Source of the DNA: a virus
DNA length: 42,516 bases
IMG/VR virus record: IMGVR_UViG_3300013104_000038
Span: 1-42,516 of that record
Direction: 5' to 3' (one strand)
The notes beneath the pieces are model-generated. The model searched no databases, had not been told where the DNA came from, and saw only the letters and a program-made list of their open reading frames with translations. Positions 3,768 to 26,987 of this stretch are shown piece by piece (position 1 is the stretch's first letter; the number at the start of each line of letters is the position of its first letter). Both the position numbers and the translations under genes were made by a program.

Positions 3768-3947
3768 ATGATGGACGTCGAATACAAAACAGCCCGCGAG
3801 CGGGAACTGGAAGATTTGCTGGTTTCGGCGAGGGCAATCGCGCAGCGCAAAGGTGAAAACGTTAATTGGGAGCGGTTCGACGCGCGTATTGCTTCCTTCG
3901 GCATCGGGTCGGTAACAGCGAAAGTCTTCAAGAACGATCGCCCGTGA
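3768..3947 (+). CDS. Hypothetical protein (59 aa), below the ORF-track cutoff.
   Basis: GGGAGA lies upstream of the ATG at 3768. Translation: MMDVEYKTARERELEDLL... Its TGA overlaps a GTG at 3944 (GTGA). Confidence 0.5.
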   Translation: MMDVEYKTARERELEDLLVSARAIAQRKGENVNWERFDARIASFGIGSVTAKVFKNDRP

Positions 3948-5647
3948 TCCTGATTGACCCGTCGAAATATCCGCACTGCGCGTCGGCCCAAAGCTACGTC
4001 GCGGGCGTGCTCGACGGGTCGATCCTCGCGTGCGAATGGATTCGCCTCGCCTGCGAGCGCCACCAGCGCGATCTGGCGCGGGTCGAGAATGCCGATTGGC
4101 TCTATCGCTACGACTTCGACGCTGCCGAGCGCGCAACGCGATTCGCGACGCGCTTCCCGCACGTCAAGGGCAAATGGGCCGCCAAGCACGAGCTGTTCAA
4201 GCCGGAGCCCTGGCAGTGCTTTTGGTACTGCTCGATCTTCGGCTGGCTCAACAAGACGACGGGCAAGCGCCGCTTCCGCAAGGCGCGCGGGTACATCCCG
4301 CGCAAGAATGGCAAGTCGCTCATGGTCGCGCCGATCGGGCTTTATATGCTCACGGCGGACAATGAGCCCGGCGCCGAGGTCTTCAGCGGCGCCGCAAACG
4401 AAAAGCAGGCTTGGGAGGTCTTCGGCCCGGCGAAGCAGATGGCGATGCTCCGCCGCGACTTCCGCGAGCGGTTCGGCGTCCAGGCCAATGCCAAGAGCCT
4501 CACCATCCCTGGCAGCATGGCGAAGTTCGAGCCGGTCATCGGCAAACCCGGCGACGGCAGCAGCCCGCATTGCTCAATCACTGACGAGTACCACGAGCAC
4601 ATCACTGACGAGCAGCTGGCGACGATGGAGACGGGCATGGGCGCCCGCGAGCAGCCGCTCAGCATCGTGGTCAGTACCGCGGGCGACAACACTGCGGGCC
4701 CGTGTCGCGCTGACTGGCTGGAATGCCAAAAAGTGCTCCAAGGCACCACGAGCGACGAGACATTATTTGCGCTGATCTTCACGATTGATGCGAAGGATAT
4801 GGACTGGACGAGTGAAGCCGCGCTGCGCATGGCCAACCCGAACTTCGGCGTCAGCGTCTCGGCCGAGTTCCTGCTCGCGCAGCAGCAGGATGCGATCAAC
4901 AATCCGCGCAAGCAGGGCCACTTCAAGACCAAGCACCTGAACATCTGGGTCCAGGCGCGCGACGCGTTCATTGACCTGCTGAAATGGCGCGCATGCGCCG
5001 ATGAGTCGCTGCGGATACAGCAGTACCACGGCCGGCGCTGCTACCTCGGGCTGGATCTGGCCTCGAAGATCGACTTGTGCGCGCTGGAGCTGCTGTTCCC
5101 CGAGACCGACGGCACGTTCACCCGATTCGGCAAGTATTACCTGCCGCGCGCGACGGTCGACCTGCCGCAGAACGAGCATTACCGGGAATACGAGGCGCTG
5201 GGGCTGCTCACGGTGACCGAGGGAAACATTACCGACTACTCGCTCATCTTCGAGGACATTTGCGCGCTGGCCAAGGTCGTCGATCTGGCGGAGATTGCAT
5301 ACGACCCGCACAATGCTACCATGCTGGTCACTGCGCTGACCGATGAGGGGTTGCCAGTCGTAGAGTTCGGGCCTACCGTGCTGAATTTCTCCGAGCCGAT
5401 GAAGCAAATCGAGGCGCTGATTCTGAATCTGCAGTTCCACCACAACGGGGACAAGGTGATGGAATGGGCCATGTCGAATGTTGTCGCCAAGGCGGACAGG
5501 AAGGACAACGTGTACCCGAACAAAGAGACCAATGACAAGAAGATTGATCCCTTTGTCGCGCTGTGCATGGCGATGGGGCGGTACATGGCCAGCGGCGAAA
5601 AGCCGGATGACTGGTCGGGCTTTCTCGCCTCTCCGGTGACCGGGTGA
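3944..5647 (+). CDS. Terminase large subunit.
   Basis: Walker-A-like IPRKNGKS. Terminase_1-type layout. A C-terminal nuclease region follows. I propose a GTG start at 3944, coupled to the upstream stop. The ORF track begins at a TTG at 3866. Confidence 0.92.
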   Translation: MILIDPSKYPHCASAQSYVAGVLDGSILACEWIRLACERHQRDLARVENADWLYRYDFDAAERATRFATRFPHVKGKWAAKHELFKPEPWQCFWYCSIFGWLNKTTGKRRFRKARGYIPRKNGKSLMVAPIGLYMLTADNEPGAEVFSGAANEKQAWEVFGPAKQMAMLRRDFRERFGVQANAKSLTIPGSMAKFEPVIGKPGDGSSPHCSITDEYHEHITDEQLATMETGMGAREQPLSIVVSTAGDNTAGPCRADWLECQKVLQGTTSDETLFALIFTIDAKDMDWTSEAALRMANPNFGVSVSAEFLLAQQQDAINNPRKQGHFKTKHLNIWVQARDAFIDLLKWRACADESLRIQQYHGRRCYLGLDLASKIDLCALELLFPETDGTFTRFGKYYLPRATVDLPQNEHYREYEALGLLTVTEGNITDYSLIFEDICALAKVVDLAEIAYDPHNATMLVTALTDEGLPVVEFGPTVLNFSEPMKQIEALILNLQFHHNGDKVMEWAMSNVVAKADRKDNVYPNKETNDKKIDPFVALCMAMGRYMASGEKPDDWSGFLASPVTG

Positions 5648-5808
5648 ATCCGGCCGCCTTCGTGGGGCTGCTCCTGGTGCTCGGCGCCGGGCTGATCGTC
5701 TCCGGCGTCGGCCTGCTGCTCGGCGCGCCTTGGGCGCTCATCGCTGCCGGCAGCCAGCTGCTCGGCCTCGCCCTACTCTTGCGCGGAGGCCGCCCGCATG
5801 GCGCTTAA
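5644..5808 (+). CDS. Small two-transmembrane-segment protein (54 aa), below the ORF-track cutoff.
   Basis: The GTG at 5644 overlaps the terminase stop (GTGA). Translation: VNPAAFVGLLLVLGAGLIVSGVGLLLGAPWALIAAGSQLLGLALLLRGGRPHGA. Third codon positions are very GC-rich. The ORF ends 8 nt past the 3' end of the portal ATG. Confidence 0.4.
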   Translation: MNPAAFVGLLLVLGAGLIVSGVGLLLGAPWALIAAGSQLLGLALLLRGGRPHGA

Positions 5809-7069
5809 AGATCCCTTCGTCCATTTCTTCGACGGCATCCAGGGCGTCCTCGGCTACCTCGGAAGCGGCTGGTATCCCAGCGGCGCCCGGGACGGCATGG
5901 CGCCCTTTCGTTCCGTCGGCTCCGACTCCGGCGTGCAGGTCAGCTCCGGCGCCGCGCTACAAGTGGCAGCCGTCTACGCCTGCGTGCGGCTGATCTCCGA
6001 GACGGTCGCGACGCTGCCGCTGGAGCTGAAGCAGCCGGACGCCGCCGGGAAGCTGGTCAAGGCCACCAGCAGCCCCGTGTACCGCATGCTCCGGTACTCG
6101 CCGAACGCCTACATGACGGCGGTTGAGTTCTGGGAAATGATGGTCGCTTCGTTGTGCCTATGGGGCAATGCCTACGCGGTCAAGGTGCGCGTCGCCGGCC
6201 GCGTCGTGGCGCTCGATCCGCTACGCCCCGAGTTTGTGACGGTTTACCGGGAGATGGCAACGGGGCAAATCCGTTACGCCTATCTGCGGGGCAACCAGCG
6301 CCAGGAGTTCCCGGCGAGCGACATTCTGCATATCAAGGGCTTCGGCGTGGATGGCCTCGTGGGCCTCTCGCCGATCGCGATGGCCCGGCAGACCATCGGT
6401 CGCTCGATTGCAACCGACCAAGCCAGCGGCAAGGTCTTCGGCTCGGGGCTGTCGGCCGGCGGCTTCATCACCTATGAAAAGTCCTTCACGACGCCAGAGC
6501 TGCGGGAGGACGTGCGCAAGTCGATCGAGCAGTTCACGGGCAGCTCCAACGCCGGCAAGACGATGGTGCTGGAGAACGGCATGGGGTATACCCCCATCAC
6601 TATGAACCCGGTCGACGCCCAGATGCTCGAATCTCGGCTGTTCAATGCCGAGGAAGTGTGCCATTGGTTCGGCACGCCGCCACCGCTCGCGGGCTACATG
6701 TCGAAGGCCAGCTCATGGGCGTCCAGCCTCGAAACGCTGATCCTGCTCTGGATCAAGACGGGCCTGCGGGCCTACCTGACCCGCATCGAGCAATCGGTCT
6801 CGCGCGCGCTTGCGCTGCCGACGACGAGCGTGCTGGCCTTCGACCTCGACGAGCTGGAACGCGGCGACAGCGCGGCGCGGGCCGCGCTGTATTCGGGCGC
6901 GGCGCAGAACGGCTACATGACGCGCAACGAGATCCGCGCGAAGGAAGGCGACCCGGCGATCGAGGGCGCCGATGAACTGACCGTCCAGTCCAATCTGGTC
7001 CCCCTTTCAAAGCTGGGCGAACTCGGCGCCAAGCCGACCGCGCCGGCGCCCGGAGACGCGCTGCCATGA
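5798..7069 (+). CDS. Portal protein (HK97 family).
   Basis: 423 aa. Position and sequence character fit the Phage_portal family. Confidence 0.92.
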   Translation: MALKDPFVHFFDGIQGVLGYLGSGWYPSGARDGMAPFRSVGSDSGVQVSSGAALQVAAVYACVRLISETVATLPLELKQPDAAGKLVKATSSPVYRMLRYSPNAYMTAVEFWEMMVASLCLWGNAYAVKVRVAGRVVALDPLRPEFVTVYREMATGQIRYAYLRGNQRQEFPASDILHIKGFGVDGLVGLSPIAMARQTIGRSIATDQASGKVFGSGLSAGGFITYEKSFTTPELREDVRKSIEQFTGSSNAGKTMVLENGMGYTPITMNPVDAQMLESRLFNAEEVCHWFGTPPPLAGYMSKASSWASSLETLILLWIKTGLRAYLTRIEQSVSRALALPTTSVLAFDLDELERGDSAARAALYSGAAQNGYMTRNEIRAKEGDPAIEGADELTVQSNLVPLSKLGELGAKPTAPAPGDALP

Positions 7070-7734
7070 AGATGAAATTCCTCAATCAGGCCTTGGACCT
7101 GAAAGACGCCGAAGTCCAGGCCGACGGCACATTCTCCGGCTACGCCTCGATCTGGGGCGAGGTCGACAGCTACAACGAGGTCGTCGCCAAGGGCGCGTTC
7201 ACTGCATCGCTGAAGGATTACGCCAAGCGCGGTAAGATGCCGAACCTGCTCTGGCAGCACCGCTCGGACAAGCCCATCGGCGTGTGGCTGACGATGGTCG
7301 AGGACGCCAAGGGCCTGAAGGTCACCGGACGACTGGCGCTCGACACGGCGCAGGGCGCCGAAGCCTATGCGCTGCTCAAGCTGGGCGCCATCGACGGCCT
7401 CTCGATCGGGTACGTGGCCACGAAGTGGGAGGAAGATACCAAGACCGGCATCGTGACGCTGACCGAGATCAATCTCTGGGAAGTGTCGCTGGTCACTTTT
7501 CCCGCCGGCCCCGGCGCGCGGGTCGACGGGGTGAAAAATGCGTTGGAACATGGCAAGCTACCCACATTGAAGGATTTCGAGGCGTTCCTGCGAGATGAGG
7601 CAGGCTTCTCGAAAACTCAGGCCGCGGCCATCGCGGGCAAGGGCTTGAGCCACCTTCTACGTCAGCGTGAGGCTGACAGCCAGAACCGCGATCTGAAACT
7701 GGCCGACCTTCTGGCCGTCATCAACCCACGCTGA
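7066..7734 (+). CDS. Prohead maturation protease (HK97 / S78 family).
   Basis: The N-terminal region reads DGTFSGYASIWGEVDSYNEVVAKGAF...LWQHRSDKPIGVW. ATGA overlap with the portal gene. Confidence 0.9.
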   Translation: MKMKFLNQALDLKDAEVQADGTFSGYASIWGEVDSYNEVVAKGAFTASLKDYAKRGKMPNLLWQHRSDKPIGVWLTMVEDAKGLKVTGRLALDTAQGAEAYALLKLGAIDGLSIGYVATKWEEDTKTGIVTLTEINLWEVSLVTFPAGPGARVDGVKNALEHGKLPTLKDFEAFLRDEAGFSKTQAAAIAGKGLSHLLRQREADSQNRDLKLADLLAVINPR

Positions 7735-7744
7735 GGAAGCACTC

Positions 7745-9040
7745 ATGAACATTTTCAACCTTTTCGCCCTCGGCATCCGCCGCGGCGAGCAGTCCGGCAA
7801 GATCAAGCACACCGGCTACCGCGTCGGCCGCAAGGATGGCGTCGATCCCGAGCAGTTGAAGACCGCCCTCGCGGCCGCGCTGGAAAAGCGGGATGCCGAG
7901 ATCAAGGGCCTGGTCACCAAGTCGAACGAGGAAATCGAGAAGCTGGGTAAGGCCAGCAAAGAGACGATCGAGGCACTGCAAAAGGCGGCGACCGAGGGCG
8001 TGGCCCTGCGGGAGCGCCTGAATGGCGTCGAGCAGGAGATTGCCGAGATCAAGTCCATGAAGGGCACGGGCGACGCGCAGGCGCAGAAGTCGGCCGGCAC
8101 CCAGCTCTGCGAGTCCGAGGACTTCAAGAACTTCGCCGCGAAGGGCAAGGGTACGGCGGTCCTGCAGCTGAAGGCGGTCACCAGCGTCACCAGCGCCACG
8201 ACCGGCACGGGTGCTGCGGGCGGCGCCATCCAGCCGGATTGGCTGCCGGGCATCATCACGCCGGCGCTGCGCCCGTTCACCATCCGCGACCTGCTGATGC
8301 CGGGCCGCACCGGCTCGAACGTGGTGCGCTACGTTCGTGAGTCGGGCTTCCAGAACATGGCCGCCTCGGTGGCGGAAGCCGCGCTGAAGCCGCAGTCTGA
8401 TCTAAGCCTGACCCAGGTCGACACGGCAGTGAAGACCCTGGCCCATTGGCTGAAGGCGTCCAAGCAGATCCTCGCCGACGTGCCGATGCTGTCGAGCTAC
8501 ATCGACACCCGCCTGACCTACGGCCTGAAATATGTCGAGGAGACCCAGCTCTTGGCCGGCGACGGCACGGGCGAGAACCTGCTGGGTCTCATCCCGCAGG
8601 CGACCGCTTTCGACGACGCGCTGCGCTCGGCCGGCGACAACAAGATCGACACGTTGCGCAAGGCGATCCTGCAGGTCCGCATCGCCGAGTACCGCGCCAG
8701 CGGCATCGTGCTGAACCCGATCGACTGGGCGGATATCGAGCTGACCAAGAGCACCACGGGCGAGTACGTCTGGGTGAACGTCGGCACGGGCGCCAGCCCG
8801 CAGCTGTGGCGCTTGCCCGTCGTGGATACCAACGCGATCCCGGCCGGTCACTTCCTGGTCGGCGCGTTCAACATGGCGGCCCAGGTGTTCGACCGCGAAG
8901 ATGCCAACGTCCAAGTCTCGACCGAAGACGGCGACAACTTCGTCAAGAACATGGTGACGATCCGCGCCGAGGAGCGTCTGGCGCTGGTCGTGTACCGGCC
9001 GGAATCGTTCGTCTACGGTCCGTTCACCGCGGCCACCTGA
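7745..9040 (+). CDS. Major capsid protein (HK97 fold) with an N-terminal delta/scaffold-like coiled coil.
   Basis: 431 aa. Charged coiled-coil N-terminus followed by an HK97-type body. Position after the protease fits. Confidence 0.92.
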   Translation: MNIFNLFALGIRRGEQSGKIKHTGYRVGRKDGVDPEQLKTALAAALEKRDAEIKGLVTKSNEEIEKLGKASKETIEALQKAATEGVALRERLNGVEQEIAEIKSMKGTGDAQAQKSAGTQLCESEDFKNFAAKGKGTAVLQLKAVTSVTSATTGTGAAGGAIQPDWLPGIITPALRPFTIRDLLMPGRTGSNVVRYVRESGFQNMAASVAEAALKPQSDLSLTQVDTAVKTLAHWLKASKQILADVPMLSSYIDTRLTYGLKYVEETQLLAGDGTGENLLGLIPQATAFDDALRSAGDNKIDTLRKAILQVRIAEYRASGIVLNPIDWADIELTKSTTGEYVWVNVGTGASPQLWRLPVVDTNAIPAGHFLVGAFNMAAQVFDREDANVQVSTEDGDNFVKNMVTIRAEERLALVVYRPESFVYGPFTAAT

Positions 9041-9071
9041 TCTTCGCTGGCAGGAATGGGGATGTTGGAGG

Positions 9072-9095
9072 GCGGGGCGTCTTAGGGCGCCCCGC
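9072..9095 (+). terminator. Stem-loop after the capsid gene; possible attenuator.
   Basis: GCGGGGCG (9072-9079), 8-nt loop, CGCCCCGC (9088-9095). No clear U-tract. Confidence 0.45.
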
Positions 9096-9123
9096 TCACC
9101 TTCCAGCCAAGGAGAGTAGCGTC

Positions 9124-9324
9124 ATGCGCCATACGCACCAAGTCATCAAACCCTTCGATGCGACCGAGCGCGGCCGTATCGTCAATGCGGGCGAACTTTT
9201 CACGCCGGCCAGCGAGAGCCGCGGCAAGGAGCTGGAGCGTGCCGGCCTGATCGCCCCGCGCGCGAAGATGGTCCCCGCTGCCCCGCAGAACAAAGATGCG
9301 GCCAAGCAGCGGCGCAACAAATGA
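9124..9324 (+). CDS. Hypothetical small head-region protein (66 aa).
   Basis: AAGGAGAG lies 7 nt upstream of the ATG at 9124. Its stop overlaps the next ATG (ATGA). Confidence 0.6.
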   Translation: MRHTHQVIKPFDATERGRIVNAGELFTPASESRGKELERAGLIAPRAKMVPAAPQNKDAAKQRRNK

Positions 9325-9959
9325 GGATCGGCCTCGGGGTCATCACCTGCGGGCTACGGCCATTGCACGACCTGCTCGCGCCGCCCGGCGCCGTCCAGGT
9401 CACCTTTACCGATATGGGAAGGCGCGGGGTCGCATATTCCCGAAATGAAGTCCTGCGCCAGCTCTGGGCCGAGGGCTGCGACTACTTCTTTCTGTTCGAC
9501 GACGATTGCTACCCGGTCATGCCGGGCTGGGCCGAGTATTTCATCGCCCAGCACCACGAGTCAGGGCTCGATTTCCTCGGGCTGCCCGAGATTTTCAAGA
9601 GCAAGCTGCTCAGCACCACGGGGGAGATCCAGCTCTGGGACTCGGCGGTCGGTTGCTTTAGTTTCCAGACGCGGACGCTGATGGAGCGCGTCGGCTACTA
9701 CAACGAGGCCTACCGGACCTATGGGTACGAGGACACCGGCCGCAACGATCGCGTCCGGCGGGTGCTGGCGCTAGGTGGCTTCCCGTCCCCGGTGCGGGCC
9801 TCGGCTTATATCCATAGCCAGGACGTTTTCGGCGAGCACCCGACGCCGAACCTGAGCACCGAGGCGAAGACGGCGTGCATCGCGGCCAATCGCGGCGCAT
9901 GGCTGGCCGAACTCGGCTCGTCGCAGCTCTATTACCCGCACCCGAGGGCGCCGGCATGA
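9321..9959 (+). CDS. Glycosyltransferase, GT-A fold (GT2-like).
   Basis: DxD region FFLFDDDCYP and the GT2-like YGYEDTGRNDR motif. No transmembrane segment. ATGA overlaps at both ends. Confidence 0.8.
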   Translation: MRIGLGVITCGLRPLHDLLAPPGAVQVTFTDMGRRGVAYSRNEVLRQLWAEGCDYFFLFDDDCYPVMPGWAEYFIAQHHESGLDFLGLPEIFKSKLLSTTGEIQLWDSAVGCFSFQTRTLMERVGYYNEAYRTYGYEDTGRNDRVRRVLALGGFPSPVRASAYIHSQDVFGEHPTPNLSTEAKTACIAANRGAWLAELGSSQLYYPHPRAPA

Positions 9960-10867
9960 GCCATCTGGAGCTGCAGGGCAGCCCGGATACGTCCTGCGGT
10001 TATCACCGCATCTTCCTGCCTTTCCAGCAATTGAAGACCGACGTGAAGGTGCCGACGCTGGTCTTCAACCGCTCGGTGCCCGGCGGCGTCACGCAGCTGC
10101 GGCAAAAGCGCCGCGAGGGGTATCGCATCCTCGCGGACCTCGACGACTTCTGGGATTTGCCGCCGGATCACTACCTCTCGGCCAGCTGGATCGCTGCCGG
10201 TACGCCGGCCCGCATCCGCGCCTGCCTGGCAGAGGCCGACGTGGTGATGGTCACGAACGCGGAGCTGGCCGGGCACGTCGCGACGGTCAACGCCCGAGTG
10301 GTCATCGTGCCCAATGCGCTGCCCTTTGACTCGGGGCAATTCACCCAGGCCAGCGCCGAGCGGGCCGCTACCTTCGTCTATGCCGCGGGGCCGAGTCACC
10401 GCCCAGATGTGGCCCCGGTGGCGGCTGCCCTCGACTCCGAGTCGGTCGTTTTCGCCGGGCACGACGACCGGCATCCTGAATGGCAGCGCATCCGCCAATT
10501 GACGCCGCGCGCGGCTCGGCACCCACCGCGGCGGATCGGCGAGTACATGGGGTTGTATGACGGGCATCTCGCCGCGCTGGCGCCGCTGGCCGACAACCCG
10601 TTCAACCGCTGCAAGTCGAATCTGAAGATGCTCGAAGCCGGTGCCAAGGGCCTGCCGCTGCTGGCGTCCGACGTGCGGCCCTACCGTGAGCCCGGCGTGC
10701 TGCTGGCGCGGGACGTTGCCGGCTGGCAAGCCAACATGCGGACGTGCCTGGCGTACCCGCGGCTGGCGGCCGAGATGGGGGCTGCATTGGCGGCGCACGT
10801 TCGCGCCCACTTTCACCTCGATCAGGCGAACGCCATCCGCCGGCAAATCTTGGATAGCTTCCAATGA
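9956..10867 (+). CDS. Glycosyltransferase, GT-B fold (GT1/GT4-like).
   Basis: VVIVPNALPFD and the C-terminal NRCKSNLKMLEAGAKGLPLLASD resemble GT1-family donor-binding regions. I chose the internal ATG at 9956 for its ATGA coupling. Confidence 0.7.
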   Translation: MSHLELQGSPDTSCGYHRIFLPFQQLKTDVKVPTLVFNRSVPGGVTQLRQKRREGYRILADLDDFWDLPPDHYLSASWIAAGTPARIRACLAEADVVMVTNAELAGHVATVNARVVIVPNALPFDSGQFTQASAERAATFVYAAGPSHRPDVAPVAAALDSESVVFAGHDDRHPEWQRIRQLTPRAARHPPRRIGEYMGLYDGHLAALAPLADNPFNRCKSNLKMLEAGAKGLPLLASDVRPYREPGVLLARDVAGWQANMRTCLAYPRLAAEMGAALAAHVRAHFHLDQANAIRRQILDSFQ

Positions 10868-11397
10868 TCCATCACGTCGTGCCCTGGATGACCGGCAACA
10901 TCGGCGGCGGTTTGAACGCGGCGATCGCATTGCTGCCCGACGACGCGTGGATCTGCGTGCGCGACGGCGACACCCTGTTCCTGGCGCCGCAGTGGGGCAA
11001 GCAGATCGAGGCCATTGTGGAAGCTCAGCGCGAGCACTACGCGGTCATCGGCGCCATGACGAATCGCCTGCGCTCGCCCGAGCAGCTGCACGGGGGCCGG
11101 ATCAGCGAGGAAGCCGATATCGGCGTCCACATCGCCATCGCCAAGCAGCGCTGGAACGAATACGGCACGGCGGTGCGCCCGCTGCAGGACGTTGCCGCCG
11201 GCATGCTGATGATCTTCTCGAAGCAGTCGTGGCTGGCGCATCCGTTCGTCGAGCACTCGGTGCATTTCGATCGCCTCTTCTGCGAGGCGGCGCGCGCGGC
11301 TGGCGGCCGGATCGGCGTAGCACTTGGCGCGTACGTGTTCCACCTGTATCGTTGGGGGCATCCGAACCCCGCCTCCTACGTAGGGCATCTCGCATGA
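10864..11397 (+). CDS. Small glycosyltransferase-like protein (GT-A-like).
   Basis: WICVRDGDTLF is DxD-like. 177 aa, soluble. ATGA overlaps at both ends. Confidence 0.6.
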   Translation: MIHHVVPWMTGNIGGGLNAAIALLPDDAWICVRDGDTLFLAPQWGKQIEAIVEAQREHYAVIGAMTNRLRSPEQLHGGRISEEADIGVHIAIAKQRWNEYGTAVRPLQDVAAGMLMIFSKQSWLAHPFVEHSVHFDRLFCEAARAAGGRIGVALGAYVFHLYRWGHPNPASYVGHLA

Positions 11398-11876
11398 GCC
11401 TCGTCACGCTCGAACAAGCCAAGGCCCAGGGCCGCATTACGTGGACGAGCGAGGATACCCTGCTCCAGGCGTACCTCGATGCCGCCGAGCTGCACGCTTG
11501 CCGGTTTCTCAACCGGAACGTCTATGTCGACGCGACAGCGCTCGATACGGCCAAAGCTGCAGCGCCCACCGCACTCGGCACGGCCAAAGCGGCCTACGAT
11601 GCCGCCTACGCCGCATGGCAACTGCTGGACGCGGGCGACGTGGCGGATATCGCGCTCGAAAAGCTCAATCAGGATTGGGCCGAAGCCAAGCTCGCCGCGC
11701 GCATGACCTATTTCGGCATGGTCGCCAACGCTGCTTTCGTGCAGGCGATCGTACTGCTCGTCGCTGGCTGGGCGGTCAATCGCGAGTACGTCATCACCGA
11801 GCTGAGCAATGCGATCGAGCTGCCGATGGGCTTCACGGCGCTGCTGTTCCCGTTCCGCGTGCGGCAAGGAGTTTGA
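11394..11876 (+). CDS. Head-tail connector (gp6-like).
   Basis: The N-terminus MSLVTLEQAKAQGRI...DTLLQAYLDAAELHACRFLNR is typical of gp6-like connector proteins. Confidence 0.75.
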   Translation: MSLVTLEQAKAQGRITWTSEDTLLQAYLDAAELHACRFLNRNVYVDATALDTAKAAAPTALGTAKAAYDAAYAAWQLLDAGDVADIALEKLNQDWAEAKLAARMTYFGMVANAAFVQAIVLLVAGWAVNREYVITELSNAIELPMGFTALLFPFRVRQGV

Positions 11877-13217: not shown

Positions 13218-13763
13218 ATGAAATTGCTCTCCTACATCTACGCCATGATCGTTCTGGCCCTCGTGATGCTCGTCGAGCTGATCGTCGGCAAGCCGTCGCA
13301 TATCGTGCGCCACACCGGCCTGCGTTATGGCACCAAGAATGATGCGGTCAGCACCCAGGGCTTCCTGCTGGAAGTCAGTGTTGACGACGGGACGACTTAT
13401 CTGGAAGTCAGTCAGAATACTGATATCCCCGACGTTTCTCAGGAAGCTTCGGACCTGGACGCGACCAATTTGCAGTCGACCGCCAAGGAGTACATTGCGG
13501 GCCTGCAGGACAGCCAATCGGTGACCCTGACCGGCCAGCGTGTCGTGCTCAGCGAGGGCCAGAATGCGCTGCGCGACAATGCCGGCGCGACCAGCACCTT
13601 CAAGTTCCGCAATACCTATTCGGACGGCTCGATCCTCTCCTACTCGGCGACGATCAAGAAGTTCGGCGTGACCGGCGGCACCGACGCGGTGATGATGTTC
13701 ACCGCGACCATCCGCCCGTCCGGCGCGCAGGTCTGGAGCGGTACGGGCGCCCCGACCACCTGA
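13218..13763 (+). CDS. Major tail (tube) protein with an unusual hydrophobic N-terminal extension.
   Basis: GAGGA lies 7 nt upstream of the ATG. The body from about residue 45 (QGFLLEVSVDDGTTYLEV...DATNLQSTAKEYIAGLQD) is tail-tube-like. A hairpin follows. Confidence 0.72.
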   Translation: MKLLSYIYAMIVLALVMLVELIVGKPSHIVRHTGLRYGTKNDAVSTQGFLLEVSVDDGTTYLEVSQNTDIPDVSQEASDLDATNLQSTAKEYIAGLQDSQSVTLTGQRVVLSEGQNALRDNAGATSTFKFRNTYSDGSILSYSATIKKFGVTGGTDAVMMFTATIRPSGAQVWSGTGAPTT

Positions 13764-13776
13764 TCCTTCGCGACGA

Positions 13777-13796
13777 TCCGGCCCTTCGGGGCCGGA
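13777..13796 (+). terminator. Hairpin after the major tail gene; terminator or attenuator.
   Basis: TCCGGCCC-TTCG-GGGCCGGA (8-bp stem, tetraloop) followed by GTTCTATT. Confidence 0.55.
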
Positions 13797-13828: not shown

Positions 13829-14239
13829 ATGACTCGTCTCACGCGCGACCAGCTGCTCGCCGCAGCCCAGAATTTGGCCACCGTCCCGGTGCCCTGCCCC
13901 GAGCTGGGCGGCGATGTGGTGCTCACCATGCTCACCGCTAACGCCAAGATCGACTGGGCGGCCGAGGCGTATCCCGACGGCAAAGTGGACATGAAGCAGT
14001 ACACCTTCGGTCTGCTCGCGCGCTCGATCCTCGACGACAAGGGCGTTCCGATGCTCACCGCCGAGGAGATCGGCAGTTTCGGGGATGACCTGGTGCTGCG
14101 GTTGCACGCGGCGGCCTCCAAGCTCAACGCCATCGGCGCGCAAGAGGTCACCAAGACCGAGGGAAAATCCGACGCGGCCCCGGCTTCGCCTGGCGATTCC
14201 AACTCGCTTGGCGACTCGGATACCCCCATCCCGACCTGA
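13829..14239 (+). CDS. Tail assembly chaperone (gpG-like).
   Basis: 136 aa with an acidic C-terminus. Lies between the tube and tape-measure genes. Confidence 0.75.
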   Translation: MTRLTRDQLLAAAQNLATVPVPCPELGGDVVLTMLTANAKIDWAAEAYPDGKVDMKQYTFGLLARSILDDKGVPMLTAEEIGSFGDDLVLRLHAAASKLNAIGAQEVTKTEGKSDAAPASPGDSNSLGDSDTPIPT

Positions 14240-24031: not shown

Positions 24032-25480
24032 TCACTTCCGGTATCGCCGCCCGCGCCAGCCGCCCTTTGCCTTGATCGGCCAACCGGCGGCCCAGGGCGG
24101 CATGACGTTCATCTCGGCCTCGAAGGCTTCGATCGAGCCGAAACCCTTGGGCACCTCGGAGGCGTTCTCGTCGTAGACATGCAGCACGACGGGATAGCCG
24201 GCGGCTTCGAGCCGGTGCTGCCCGTGGCGTAGGATGCGGTTGGCCGTCGCTTGGCAAGCATTTTCCAGCAGCTTGCCCGAGTACGTGGTCATCGCGCACC
24301 AGCCGTAGGCGCCCATCTTGGGGTTCGTATTGTACCCCTCGTAACTGATCTGCAGTCCGCGCCAGTCGTCCTTCCCCGGCTGCAGGCGCGGCCGATGGTA
24401 GGGGATATAGCTACCGTCCGGCAGGAACATGTAGAGCACGTCGTCATGCACGTACATCGTGAGCCCCGAGAACGCGCCGTCCAGGCGCATGACTGGGTAC
24501 TGCGTCTCGGGGTTCTGGATCGCTAGCACCGCCATCCCTTCCAGCCCATGCAGATACGGCACGCCCTTCCAAGGCGGCACGCCGTCAGCGCGCGCGCGGC
24601 ACCATTCCCATTCCTCGCCCGCATTGACCAAGCCGCCGACGGCTACCGCTGCTTGATGCCATGCGGCCGTCGACTGCGGGCAGCTCTGGCCGCCGCCGAG
24701 GAAGACGATGTTCGGGCTCGCGGCGCGCCAGCGCAGGATCAGATCGCGCGCTTCGTTGTCGTCGCCCTCGAAACCCATCGCGCGCAATGCGCCGATCCAG
24801 CCAAGGAAGCCCAGCGCCAGTTCGGTCACTTTGCCTTTCTTGCGCAGGGGATGGTGGTTGCCGGTGGTCTGCTTATATTCCAGCAGCTCGGCCAGCGGCA
24901 CCTTGAACGTCTCGGCCGCTGACGCTTCGTAAATCTTGCCATGCGTGCGGAATACGTCGATGCGCCACTGCTCGCCGGCCAGCATCGCGTTCACGACGGC
25001 CTCGATCGCCGAGTAGTCCGAGCAGATAAACTCGTGCTCCTCGTCGGTGCAGAGCAGCGAGCGGAGCGATCCGCCCATGACCGCCAGCGCATCGCCCCAG
25101 ATGCCCTCAACGAAGTCCAGGTCGCGCGTCGCAATCGCCGCCAGGCCATCCTCGGCCGCCGCCGCGTTCCATTCCTCGGCCTTGCTGGCCGGCCCGCGTA
25201 GCTGGAAGCACCACGGGCAGGCGACGCGCAGCGCGGGGTGCCAGTGGCCGCAATGGGCGCACTGGCGCACCTCGGGGCCGGAGTTCGGGAAATTGGTGGG
25301 CTGCGGCCCGCTACCCGTCGGACGGCCGGTTCTCGCGCCGTCCACGGTGAACAGGTCGTGCACCCGGTTGGCGGCGGTCATCTGGCCGCGCAACGCGTAG
25401 ACTTTCTTGACGCTGGCGCTCCCGACTGCCTGGCGGATCTCCAGCGCGCGAATGCAGGCTTTGAGGTCGGTTTGGTTCAT
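24032..25480 (-). CDS. DNA polymerase family A, polymerase (fingers/palm) fragment.
   Basis: Motifs seen: TGRPTGSGPQPTNFP; motif A ICSDYSAIEAVV; motif B RKKGKVTELALGFLGW; motif C VVLHVYDENASEV. No exonuclease domain. The ATG overlaps the MTase stop (ATGA). Confidence 0.9.
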   Translation of the reverse strand: MNQTDLKACIRALEIRQAVGSASVKKVYALRGQMTAANRVHDLFTVDGARTGRPTGSGPQPTNFPNSGPEVRQCAHCGHWHPALRVACPWCFQLRGPASKAEEWNAAAAEDGLAAIATRDLDFVEGIWGDALAVMGGSLRSLLCTDEEHEFICSDYSAIEAVVNAMLAGEQWRIDVFRTHGKIYEASAAETFKVPLAELLEYKQTTGNHHPLRKKGKVTELALGFLGWIGALRAMGFEGDDNEARDLILRWRAASPNIVFLGGGQSCPQSTAAWHQAAVAVGGLVNAGEEWEWCRARADGVPPWKGVPYLHGLEGMAVLAIQNPETQYPVMRLDGAFSGLTMYVHDDVLYMFLPDGSYIPYHRPRLQPGKDDWRGLQISYEGYNTNPKMGAYGWCAMTTYSGKLLENACQATANRILRHGQHRLEAAGYPVVLHVYDENASEVPKGFGSIEAFEAEMNVMPPWAAGWPIKAKGGWRGRRYRK

Positions 25481-25956
25481 GCGACGTAGCCTGGCAGCCC
25501 GCAGTCCCGCAACACCAGTGCGTTATACGTGCCGTAGGCAATCAAGACAATCGGGCCGCCGCTATTACCTTTGGCTTTCGTGCCGTCTTGGTGGCGGAAA
25601 TGCGGGCGCCCCTTTAGAAATAGCACCCCGGAAGCCCGGCCCCACACCGAGCGGTGAAAGCCAGCCGTATCGGTACGCGCGAAAGCAAGTGCGATGCCGT
25701 TGCCGTGCGCCGCCATCTTTTCAAGCCAAGGCCACGTATGTTCGCCAAACGGTGGATTGAGCCATACCCGACCGCTCCACTCGGCATGCAGGCCGTCCTC
25801 GGGCAGTTCGATATGACGCAGCGCAGTCGGCCAAGGCCTAGGACTTGGAGCCGCACACGGATCGAGGTCGAAGACACCGAGGGCATCCAAAATTTCAGGC
25901 GGCGTCAGCCATGTATGCGTCGCGGCAACTGGCCGATTTGCATAGGGGTGTTTCAT
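25477..25956 (-). CDS. DNA N6-adenine methyltransferase (phage Dam-like).
   Basis: FDLDPCA and VWLNPPFG motifs. 159 aa. GAGGAA lies upstream of the ATG. Confidence 0.82.
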   Translation of the reverse strand: MKHPYANRPVAATHTWLTPPEILDALGVFDLDPCAAPSPRPWPTALRHIELPEDGLHAEWSGRVWLNPPFGEHTWPWLEKMAAHGNGIALAFARTDTAGFHRSVWGRASGVLFLKGRPHFRHQDGTKAKGNSGGPIVLIAYGTYNALVLRDCGLPGYVA

Positions 25957-25967
25957 TCAGGTGTTCC

Positions 25968-26987
25968 TCAGAATGGAATCTCATTGTCATAATCGAAGTC
26001 AGGTAACGGCGCTCCCTCAGCGGGGGCGGCCTCCGCTCGGCCGAGTAGTGCGCGTAATTCTTGCAGCTTCCCCGTCACGTTCTCTTCGTCCAGCGAATCG
26101 ACGTAACACCCCTTCCCCGCAAGCCACCCGACGAGACGCTGCACCTCGGAGGCTTTCTTGACCGCGCCGCCGGTCAGCGCCGCCAGTTCGGCGTTGTAGC
26201 GTTCGAGCGCCTGCTCCAGCACGACGATGCAATTCTCGACGCCCGCGCGGTCCACCGGAATGCCGCGGCGATTGATCGCCAGGTCGAGCAGCCAGTAGGC
26301 GCGGCGGTCGGCGGGCATGTCGGGCGTCGCGGCGCTCACTTCGTCCTCGGCCAGCACGTCGCGGGCGTTGTACGAGTAGAGCCGCGGGCCATCGACCGGA
26401 TCTTCCTCGGGGCGGATGCGCTTGCGCGGATCTTTCTTGGTCGGCTTGCGCGGCACGCTGAACTTGTCGAGCAGGCGCTTGCCCTCGGCATCCTTTTGGT
26501 GCTCGATGCCCAGCACGTCGCCGACGTCGGCCAGGGCAGGCGGCAGCGACCACGCGCGGGCCTTACCCATCGAACAATAGAGCTGCGCCGGGTCGATGCG
26601 CGGGAAGCCGTGCTTTGGCACCGCGACGTGCTCCCAGATCCACAACTCGAACTTGGCGCCATGTGCCTCGATCTCGCCGCCGTTGCCGATGTGATTGCAG
26701 AAGTCCGCCGGCAACGGTTGGCCCGGTAGCCAGAGCCGAGGGCCGGCGCCATCTTTCAGGTCGTAGACCATCGAGAGGATTTCCGTCGTCGGGTGCTGCG
26801 CGTAGACCGCCGCCCCGACCGCGGGCAACCCGCCGCGGCCCTTCGCGGCGGTCGCCGTCTTGAGCCACTTGCCGTCGGCTTCCGACCACTCGAAACCCGC
26901 CTCGCTGTACGTCTCCAAGTCGAAACTCGGGCGCACCGTCGAGTAGCCGAGCCCGACGCGAAGTTTGGTGCCGGCGAGATGGGTCAT
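25968..26987 (-). CDS. DNA polymerase family A, 3'-5' exonuclease (N-terminal) fragment with an SSB-like acidic C-terminal tip.
   Basis: ExoI is FDLETYSE, ExoII-like is HGAKFELWIW, and ExoIII is YNARDVLAED (Yx3D). The protein ends ...PLPDFDYDNEIPF. Confidence 0.85.
   Translation of the reverse strand: MTHLAGTKLRVGLGYSTVRPSFDLETYSEAGFEWSEADGKWLKTATAAKGRGGLPAVGAAVYAQHPTTEILSMVYDLKDGAGPRLWLPGQPLPADFCNHIGNGGEIEAHGAKFELWIWEHVAVPKHGFPRIDPAQLYCSMGKARAWSLPPALADVGDVLGIEHQKDAEGKRLLDKFSVPRKPTKKDPRKRIRPEEDPVDGPRLYSYNARDVLAEDEVSAATPDMPADRRAYWLLDLAINRRGIPVDRAGVENCIVVLEQALERYNAELAALTGGAVKKASEVQRLVGWLAGKGCYVDSLDEENVTGKLQELRALLGRAEAAPAEGAPLPDFDYDNEIPF

Follow-up and report, generated by a model that had tools for sequence, protein, structure and literature searches.

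Why should a phage carry three glycosyltransferase genes in the middle of its head-morphogenesis genes, and what do the encoded enzymes modify? The question is raised by IMG/VR virus record IMGVR_UViG_3300013104_000038, a complete contig of ~42.5 kb and 64% GC that represents a siphophage genome, analysed here over its whole length of 42,516 nucleotides (nt; hereafter the window). Between its major capsid gene and a head-tail connector gene lie three predicted glycosyltransferase genes, GT1 (9321..9959), GT2 (9956..10867) and GT3 (10864..11397), all on the plus strand. A first-pass annotation had suggested that the trio glycosylates virion proteins, an idea that gains strong independent support from the co-variation, described below, of GT3 with C-terminal threonine on capsid and tail proteins. 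On sequence comparison, we consider it probable that the trio is a cytoplasmic late cassette that O-glycosylates the C-terminal threonines of the phage's own capsid and tail tube proteins.

A C-terminal threonine tag and the third enzyme

The major capsid protein of the window (431 amino acids (aa), HK97-type; 7745..9040, plus strand), whose homologues carry Pfam Phage_capsid and a capsid annotation, ends in ...YGPFTAAT, the C-terminal Thr codon occupying positions 9035-9037. The tail tube protein (181 aa; 13218..13763, plus strand), which scores just under the cut-offs of Pfam Phage_TTP_11/12 (28.1 against 28.4 bits, and 23.5 against 26.1 bits), ends in ...WSGTGAPTT. Together with the tail chaperone, these are the window genes that truly end in T. 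Within the capsid lineage of the window, all seven variants that carry the enzymes have a terminal T or TT (FTAAT, FVQGT, FAAPTT, FTQAT, GTHPTT, FIKAT), whereas ~35 enzyme-free relatives of similar divergence end in ..TP, ..AP, ..GP, ..TG and similar; the last residue is often the sole change between carriers and enzyme-free capsids (AAPTT vs ADPTP). Tube proteins of enzyme-bearing relatives end, in every homologue, in ..GAPTT, ..GGPTT or ..TWTTT, and the single tube homologue found without the enzymes ends in ..TTP.

The tube C-terminus (..GAPTT), which the first-pass annotation had listed among its candidate substrates, fits this Thr-tag pattern. Its two other candidates fared less well: the internal Ser/Thr-rich capsid stretch TSVTSATTGTGAAGG is ruled out as an enzyme-specific substrate, because it is equally conserved in enzyme-free relatives, and nothing was found in favour of the LamG protein. 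The tail assembly chaperone (13829-14239) ends in ..DTPIPT and its counterparts in relatives end in ..GSPTRT and ..GTPTPT, but that of locus L006 ends in ..DTPTPA; its terminal threonine may follow the tag pattern or simply belong to a Pro/Thr-rich tail.

The association extends far beyond this lineage. A scan of IMG/VR with a GT3 profile yielded 72 more loci, and the counts that follow cover 89 GT3-bearing loci and dereplicated genes of at least 100 aa, with simple open reading frame (ORF) calls in metagenomic loci. Genes ending in TT make up 87 of 1061 (8.2%) in GT3 loci, compared with 12 of 907 (1.3%) in enzyme-free loci (Fisher p = 2e-13), several of these 12 lying on truncated contigs; the TT-ending families are major head, head-closure Hc1, major tail, portal, tube and tail-completion proteins. 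Among PF05065-type capsids encoded in GT3 loci, 36/36 distinct sequences end in S or T (34 in T, 27 in TT). Only 2/39 capsids on contigs without a detected enzyme end in T, and both contigs are cut where the enzyme genes belong, so that 0/37 evaluable enzyme-free capsids end in S or T (p ~1e-21).

At least 15 capsid groups with <40% mutual identity are represented among the carriers. Unrelated carriers with such endings are a Paraburkholderia prophage (capsid ..DAGGTT), Enterobacter-type prophages (capsids ..GANTTT and ..GANATT) and a phage with a Gp13-like capsid (..TVAPTT) whose tube protein ends in ..LLEPTT. The co-variation is repeated in two more capsid lineages for which enzyme-free sister contigs exist, the L155 and L022 types: one has ..LLEATT in carriers vs ..AALAV, ..ALLKP and similar without the enzymes, and the other ..GANTTT in carriers vs assorted other endings. 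Judged by these protein endings, GT3 co-varies tightly with C-terminal Thr or Thr-Thr on capsid, tail tube, head-closure and other virion proteins.

The tag tracks GT3, not GT2, because loci with GT1 and GT2 alone (Pseudomonas prophages), or with GT2-like genes alone, contain no TT-ending genes; a GT2-profile scan of genome contigs likewise returned mostly GT2-only or GT1+GT2 loci, without Thr tags. In the Pseudomonas prophages (L112, L113, L115, L120) the GT1+GT2 pair lies just upstream of the terminase genes and a capsid-sized ORF ends in ..YFDNL; presumably this pair serves a different target or tag. Nor is the tagged set of proteins constant between phages, since in Paraburkholderia prophages the tail-completion protein (L021 9470-9880, L111 11406-11816) is tagged (..EEQTT) and the long Ig-domain tail tube protein is not (..AEVQE / ..TEVQK). 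Among IMG/VR contigs related to the L022-type capsid, four loci (L203, L205, L208, L220) have a GT1-like gene, no GT3, and capsids ending in GSGQGS, SGQTS, VTAGS or AIGS. Gram-negative prophages may, from these endings, have a second, Gly-Ser tag system.

Cultured phages offer a further comparison. The closest viral structure to GT3 (Foldseek) is the C-terminal domain of a 407-aa glycosyltransferase of Cellulophaga phage phi18:2, with a template-modelling (TM) score of 0.94. Cellulophaga phage phi18:1 has a glycosyltransferase locus that GT3 matches by tblastn: gp41, which has a GT3-like domain, is encoded in the structural module. A terminal T is confined, among the 37 phi18:1 proteins examined, to two: capsid gp49 (..LVSGT) and tail protein gp55 (..RTVGT).

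The three enzymes and the head gene string

All three enzymes fall into PHROG glycosyltransferase families: GT1 (212 aa) into phrog_2456 (1.7e-45), GT2 (303 aa) into phrog_7162 (3.6e-79) and GT3 (177 aa) into phrog_14179 (4e-56). AlphaFold2 models of GT1 and GT3, built from alignments of database homologues (predicted local distance difference test scores of 92.4 and 93.0, respectively), match many GT-A structures in Foldseek with probability 1.0 and TM ~0.45-0.6 on the query. The GT1 matches include ppGalNAc-T, TarS and WrtF, and those of GT3 the LH3 GT domain, ColGalT1 and ppGalNAc-T; some of the matched structures are protein O-glycosyltransferases. Predicted DxD-type motifs for binding of metal and nucleotide sugar are preserved in both: F59-D60-D61-D62-C63 of the GT1 motif FLFDDDC(Y)P is invariant in 21 homologues, and D34 and D36 of the GT3 motif RDGDT in 30. 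On these models, the soluble proteins GT1 and GT3 are glycosyltransferases of the GT-A fold.

The second enzyme, likewise soluble, is by profile similarity a GT-B-like glycosyltransferase with a GT1/GT4-type C-terminal half. It matches Pfam Glyco_trans_1_2 (PF13524) at 5e-5, its 23.7 bits falling under the cut-off of 25, and PF13692 at 17.2 bits (cut-off 27); a PF13524 match is precomputed for many of its close homologues, and a PDB profile search gave weak matches to group-1 glycosyltransferases (E = 0.05-0.1). At 303 aa it is short for a GT-B enzyme. This length assumes a start at ATG 9956; the ORF can also be called from an upstream GTG at 9875, and we place the start at 9956 because homologues measure 302-307 aa. 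Other resources contributed little on the trio: Pfam is weak or silent, no NCBIfam family matches, single-sequence searches of PDB gave no match, and PDB profile matches to prefoldin and a designed TIM barrel were dismissed as marginal or spurious.

These results agree with the first-pass annotation, which had named three soluble glycosyltransferases, the first GT-A-like, the second GT-B-like and the third with a DxD-like motif. The motifs on which it drew (FFLFDDDCYP, YGYEDTGRNDR, VVIVPNALPFD, KSNLKMLEAGAKGLPLLASD and CVRDGDTLF) are all present, and structure and profile searches place none of the three in a non-glycosyltransferase fold. It had also reported ATGA stop/start overlaps throughout the locus, and all four are indeed there, at 9321 (the stop of a 66-aa post-capsid ORF with the start of GT1), 9956, 10864 and 11394 (the stop of GT3 with the start of the connector gene). 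No 19-residue stretch of GT1, GT2 or GT3 reaches transmembrane hydrophobicity (maximum Kyte-Doolittle 1.06-1.21). The three are real genes with no compositional anomaly, since their third-position GC (0.83-0.86) is the same as that of their structural neighbours.

A scheme consistent with these features can be proposed. The acceptors would be the free C-terminal threonine or threonines of the capsid (...FTAAT) and the tail tube (...GAPTT). GT3 would most likely read the C-terminal Thr tag and attach the initial sugar, taken from a nucleotide sugar of the host, after which GT1 and GT2 would lengthen the chain; with their genes translationally coupled to the head genes, the enzymes would be made together with their substrates. 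The glycan might benefit the phage by shielding the particle surface, a role reported for mycobacteriophage glycosylation, or else through stability or adhesion. We infer in this scheme that sugar is attached at all, which enzyme acts first, what the sugar is, how the phage benefits, and that the capsid C-terminus is exposed on the particle surface.

GT3 belongs to a large family of ~825 clusters at 50% identity (E <= 1e-10), whose members are stand-alone proteins or C-terminal domains of 390-650-aa proteins, encoded in loci of Proteobacteria and Bacteroidota and on low-GC metagenomic contigs without an assigned host. In many of the low-GC loci (among them L161, L169, L177, L184) GT1 measures 450-500 aa and has an extra C-terminal domain ending in W-x-KHK (WFKHK, YFKHK), an ending also seen in gp46 of a Mycobacterium abscessus prophage (..SVWKHK), in L026 (8848-10260) and in a separate 234-aa ORF that follows GT2 in L024 (8933-9637; ..WWKHK). 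From its recurrence in these sequences, the W-x-KHK domain is a conserved accessory domain.

The remainder of the late region has a familiar order. The large terminase (3866-5647), portal (5798-7069) and S78 protease (7066-7734) genes precede the capsid gene, which is followed by the 66-aa post-capsid ORF (9124..9324, plus strand), the trio and the head-tail connector gene (adaptor Ad1; 11394..11876, plus strand; Phage_connect_1 4.5e-6, phrog_40 4.8e-17); genes for head-closure, tail terminator, tail tube, chaperone, tape measure and an RcGTA-like distal tail lie 3' of the connector. The 66-aa ORF is conserved whether or not a relative has the enzymes, and its one match, to phrog_2616, is weak; the small ORF at the equivalent position in Mesorhizobium phage P1, to which it is likened by position, is annotated 'DNA-packaging protein FI'.

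A GC-rich hairpin with a 12-bp stem and no T-run (9067..9099, plus strand) lies 3' of the capsid stop; the segment 9038-9126 folds at -42.8 kcal/mol (z = -3.0). A terminator scan did not call this hairpin, a possible attenuator or stabiliser separating the capsid gene from its downstream neighbours. A stronger hairpin (13777-13796), with an 8-bp stem and a TTCG loop, directly follows the tube gene. GC-rich hairpins are thus found 3' of the genes for the two most abundant virion proteins, both of them predicted glycan acceptors.

On the minus strand, the gene for DNA polymerase A (24032-26987) appears to be split into a 339-aa ORF (25968-26987; N-terminal part of phrog_17) and a 482-aa ORF (24032-25480; C-terminal part, Pfam DNA_pol_A), with a Dam-like N6-adenine methyltransferase gene (25477-25956) between them on the same strand.

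In searches of isolated phages with megablast and blastn, the capsid gene was the sole part of the region to find a match, and no close isolate emerged. In a metagenome-assembled genome (MAG) contig of Devosia sp. (DATMTK010000188.1; L110), the genes GT1-GT2-GT3 and that of the tube show 73-89% identity to those of the window. The host of the window phage is probably a Gram-negative alphaproteobacterium, and the sequence of the Devosia MAG, having a near relative of the cassette, suggests Devosia / Hyphomicrobiales as the host of this phage group.

Movement of the cassette and its likeness to known systems

The trio is an insertion, because relatives without it place the connector gene 250-400 nt after the capsid gene. 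This spacing was found, wherever the connector was present, among ~35 IMG/VR contigs whose capsids are 58-66% identical to that of the window and which encode no glycosyltransferase, and Mesorhizobium phage P1 has the simple order capsid, small ORF, connector. Close relatives (61-89% identity) have the trio at the same place as the window. The synteny comparison proposed with the first-pass annotation therefore shows an insertion into the head-morphogenesis string, with the connector gene as its downstream edge.

Elsewhere the cassette occupies quite different sites: between head-closure and gp10-like genes in a Paraburkholderia prophage (L021), directly 3' of the capsid gene in the phage with the Gp13-like capsid family (L023), between endolysin and HNH/terminase genes in Enterobacter-type prophages (L022, L024), where an NAD-dependent sugar epimerase/dehydratase is added, and between genes for a single-stranded DNA-binding protein and DNA polymerase in L025. 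Gene order varies as well (1-2-3, 3-1-2, 1-3, 3-1 and 3 alone), and cassettes of type '13' and '3' have no GT2, which is, on gene content, dispensable in many related cassettes. By this distribution across genomes the cassette is mobile.

The sole isolated phages in the searched collection with matches to all three families are phi92/phAPEC8-type myoviruses (Stephanstirmvirinae; phAPEC8 segments L108 37131-40409 and L109 18104-19525, 43138-46191). Their enzymes are 40-45% identical to those of the window and are encoded in the order GT3-GT1-GT2, with a second GT2 copy, in a cluster between endolysin and primase, whereas that of the window is in the head module. The cluster has been labelled putative dTDP glycosylation machinery (PMC8594841). 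Unlike the window, which encodes no nucleotide-sugar pathway in the ORFs scanned, these phages have dTDP-rhamnose-type genes elsewhere in the genome; in phAPEC8 the set comprises a thymidylyltransferase, a 3,5-epimerase and two epimerases, ~70 kb from the glycosyltransferase cluster. S/T endings are confined in phAPEC8/phi92 to a decoration protein (..VVFTS) and the colanic-acid-degrading tail fibre gp088 (..DVPTT), and Vequintavirinae relatives without the enzymes have different endings.

To our knowledge, glycosylation of bacteriophage virions has been demonstrated for mycobacteriophages only, and it is said to be rare outside them. In mycobacteriophages, phage glycosyltransferases are described as placing glycans at the C-terminal ends of the capsid and tail tube subunits (Freeman et al. 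2023, Cell Host Microbe 31:1216, as described in PMC12619734, PMC12363180, PMC11256854 and PMC10877033). The capsid (gp6) and major tail protein (gp11) of mycobacteriophage Che8 end in ..KTGS and ..SDGS, and those of the M. abscessus prophage prophiFSQJ01-1 in ..GAGS and ..GTGS. Capsid and tail thus share the ending ..GS in these phages, and the window repeats the principle with another tag: in both systems capsid and major tail protein have in common a short terminal sequence with a hydroxy amino acid, ..GS/..GS in Che8 and ..AT/..TT in the window. In Che8 (gp108-110), Corndog and Myrna a soluble glycosyltransferase cluster is expressed with the late genes, and the window trio is likewise in the head gene string. 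GT1 shares homology with the N-terminal domain of gp46 in the equivalent M. abscessus cassette of prophiFSQJ01-1 (profile E = 6e-36).

The two systems also differ. The Che8 system has an actinobacterial host, a Gly-Ser tag, a cluster at the right end of the genome and reported glycans, whereas the window system has a predicted Gram-negative host, a Thr or Thr-Thr tag and a cassette between capsid and connector, and is known from its genes. Neither GT1 nor GT3 shows clear homology to the Che8 and Corndog enzymes (gp110 / gp38); the GT1 profile reaches only 1.6e-4 and 3.9e-4 against Che8 gp109/gp110 in a 7-sequence search. The window system is best placed within phage virion glycosylation, as a form that differs in its enzyme family, its tag and its Gram-negative hosts. 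Chloroviruses and giant viruses use virus-encoded cytoplasmic glycosyltransferases to build a glycan on their own major capsid protein; these systems differ in their eukaryotic hosts, their atypical N-linked glycans at internal sites, their unrelated enzymes and their lack of a C-terminal tag. The literature yielded no report of virion glycosylation in Gram-negative phages or of a C-terminal Thr tag, although most subscription journals lay outside the coverage and this absence is not proof.

What the enzymes modify

Position alone cannot identify the substrate, because the cassette sits in head-tail (window, L021, L023), pre-terminase (L022, L024) or replication modules (L025, phAPEC8). We rejected genomic position as substrate evidence on this ground, and the argument that the first-pass annotation had built on the head-gene location is correspondingly weakened. 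The alternatives have to be weighed on other evidence.

One alternative is that the enzymes act on another target, such as host flagellin or pilin or a small molecule, and that the C-terminal Thr is an unrelated lineage trait travelling with GT3. A glycosyltransferase fold does not reveal its substrate, the association counts ignore phylogeny, and phAPEC8-type capsids break the Thr rule, all of which would suit such an account. Coincidental hitch-hiking is nevertheless unlikely, because the tag pattern is repeated and cross-family: it recurs in the 15 or more capsid groups noted above, in different capsid families and in several virion protein families; enzyme-free sister contigs are untagged in three separate capsid lineages; in phi18:1 the tag is on exactly the capsid and a tail protein; and hitch-hiking would have to recur although the cassette changes genomes and positions. 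We regard this alternative as improbable.

Phage glycosyltransferases are classically tied to serotype conversion, and the trio might instead remodel a host envelope glycan (O-antigen, lipopolysaccharide core, capsule or exopolysaccharide intermediates at the cytoplasmic face), thereby blocking superinfection or the re-adsorption of progeny to debris. One homologue is named 'glycosyltransferase involved in cell wall biosynthesis', and the nucleotide-sugar epimerase/dehydratase of some cassettes and the rml genes of phAPEC8 are equally compatible with this role. The first-pass annotation had reported that sugar-nucleotide synthesis, flippase and hydroxymethylase genes are absent from the genome; this holds for the ~30 larger ORFs scanned with Pfam and PHROG, which gave replication, lysis and structural functions and the Dam-like N6-adenine methyltransferase only, the small ORFs not all having been scanned. 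Within the same scope there is no flippase, bactoprenol-linked transferase, polymerase or membrane segment to serve envelope modification. Moreover, the genes are translationally coupled in the late head operon and do not lie by an integrase or immunity region, the cassette occurs in strictly lytic large myoviruses, and co-variation with C-terminal Thr on virion proteins would go unexplained. An envelope target thus seems about as doubtful as the preceding alternative.

A third possibility, that the enzymes glycosylate hydroxymethylated pyrimidines in phage DNA as a defence against restriction, was rejected as the principal explanation and strikes us as very improbable, since the required precursor enzymes were not found among the ORFs scanned and phi92/phAPEC8-type phages, in which all three families occur, are reported to be remarkably vulnerable to restriction-modification systems (PMC8594841). 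DNA sugar hypermodification clusters (T-even; the MT/5mYOX/GT clusters of Pyle et al.) do have phage GT-A/GT-B enzymes, sometimes several in a row, enzymes of similar kind glycosylate 5-hydroxymethylcytosine, and the clusters are sometimes near structural genes (bioRxiv 10.1101/2023.12.21.572611); GT1 also has faint matches to a TET-associated glycosyltransferase (E = 0.19) and a beta-glucosyl-HMC glucosyltransferase PHROG (E = 0.013), and replication genes surround the cassette in L025 and phAPEC8. Hypermodification clusters need a source of hydroxymethyl-pyrimidine (ThyS-like, or 5mYOX with a methyltransferase), and Pfam and PHROG found no ThyS-like hydroxymethylase, TET/5mYOX dioxygenase or C5-cytosine methyltransferase in the replication-side ORFs of the window, which encode only the split polymerase A, a Gp2.5-like single-stranded DNA-binding protein, a DUF2800 nuclease, a helicase, a primase-polymerase, an endonuclease and the Dam-like enzyme. 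The Thr ending of virion proteins only where GT3 is present would again stay unexplained.

Several points weigh against glycosylation of the C-terminal threonines of capsid and tube. The case as a whole is one of sequence association, and the counts on which it draws ignore kinship among loci and use simple ORF calls for metagenomic genes. The phAPEC8/phi92 capsid ends in ..KLTTA, not T, despite the presence of all three families, so that a rule that the capsid ends in T fails for these phages. A cassette inside a replication module, as in L025 and in phAPEC8 (by primase and polymerase), suits a DNA-modifying role equally well. The GT3 profile has no detectable homology to the essential Che8 gp110 (E = 0.27), and the fold class of GT2 is assigned from profiles. 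Finally, the donor sugar must be host-derived, because the ORFs scanned encode no nucleotide-sugar pathway.

Even so, we put somewhat better than even chances on a broader proposition: that GT3 defines a widespread virion-glycosylation system of Gram-negative phages, with a one- or two-residue tag (-T/-TT) that marks capsid, tail tube, head-closure and further virion proteins, with a new type of O-glycosyltransferase for the free C-terminal Thr, and with a parallel -GS system in actinophages and some enterobacterial prophages. If this is true, Gram-negative phages, including relatives of therapeutic coliphages, would commonly sugar-coat their capsids and tails, with consequences for the immunogenicity of phages and their clearance during therapy and for the stability and adhesion of particles in the environment. 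Glycosylation might also help phages to escape bacterial sensors of capsid, portal or tail-tube proteins, and a terminal Thr with one ~180-aa enzyme would provide a tiny, portable glyco-tag for the engineering of glycosylated particles.

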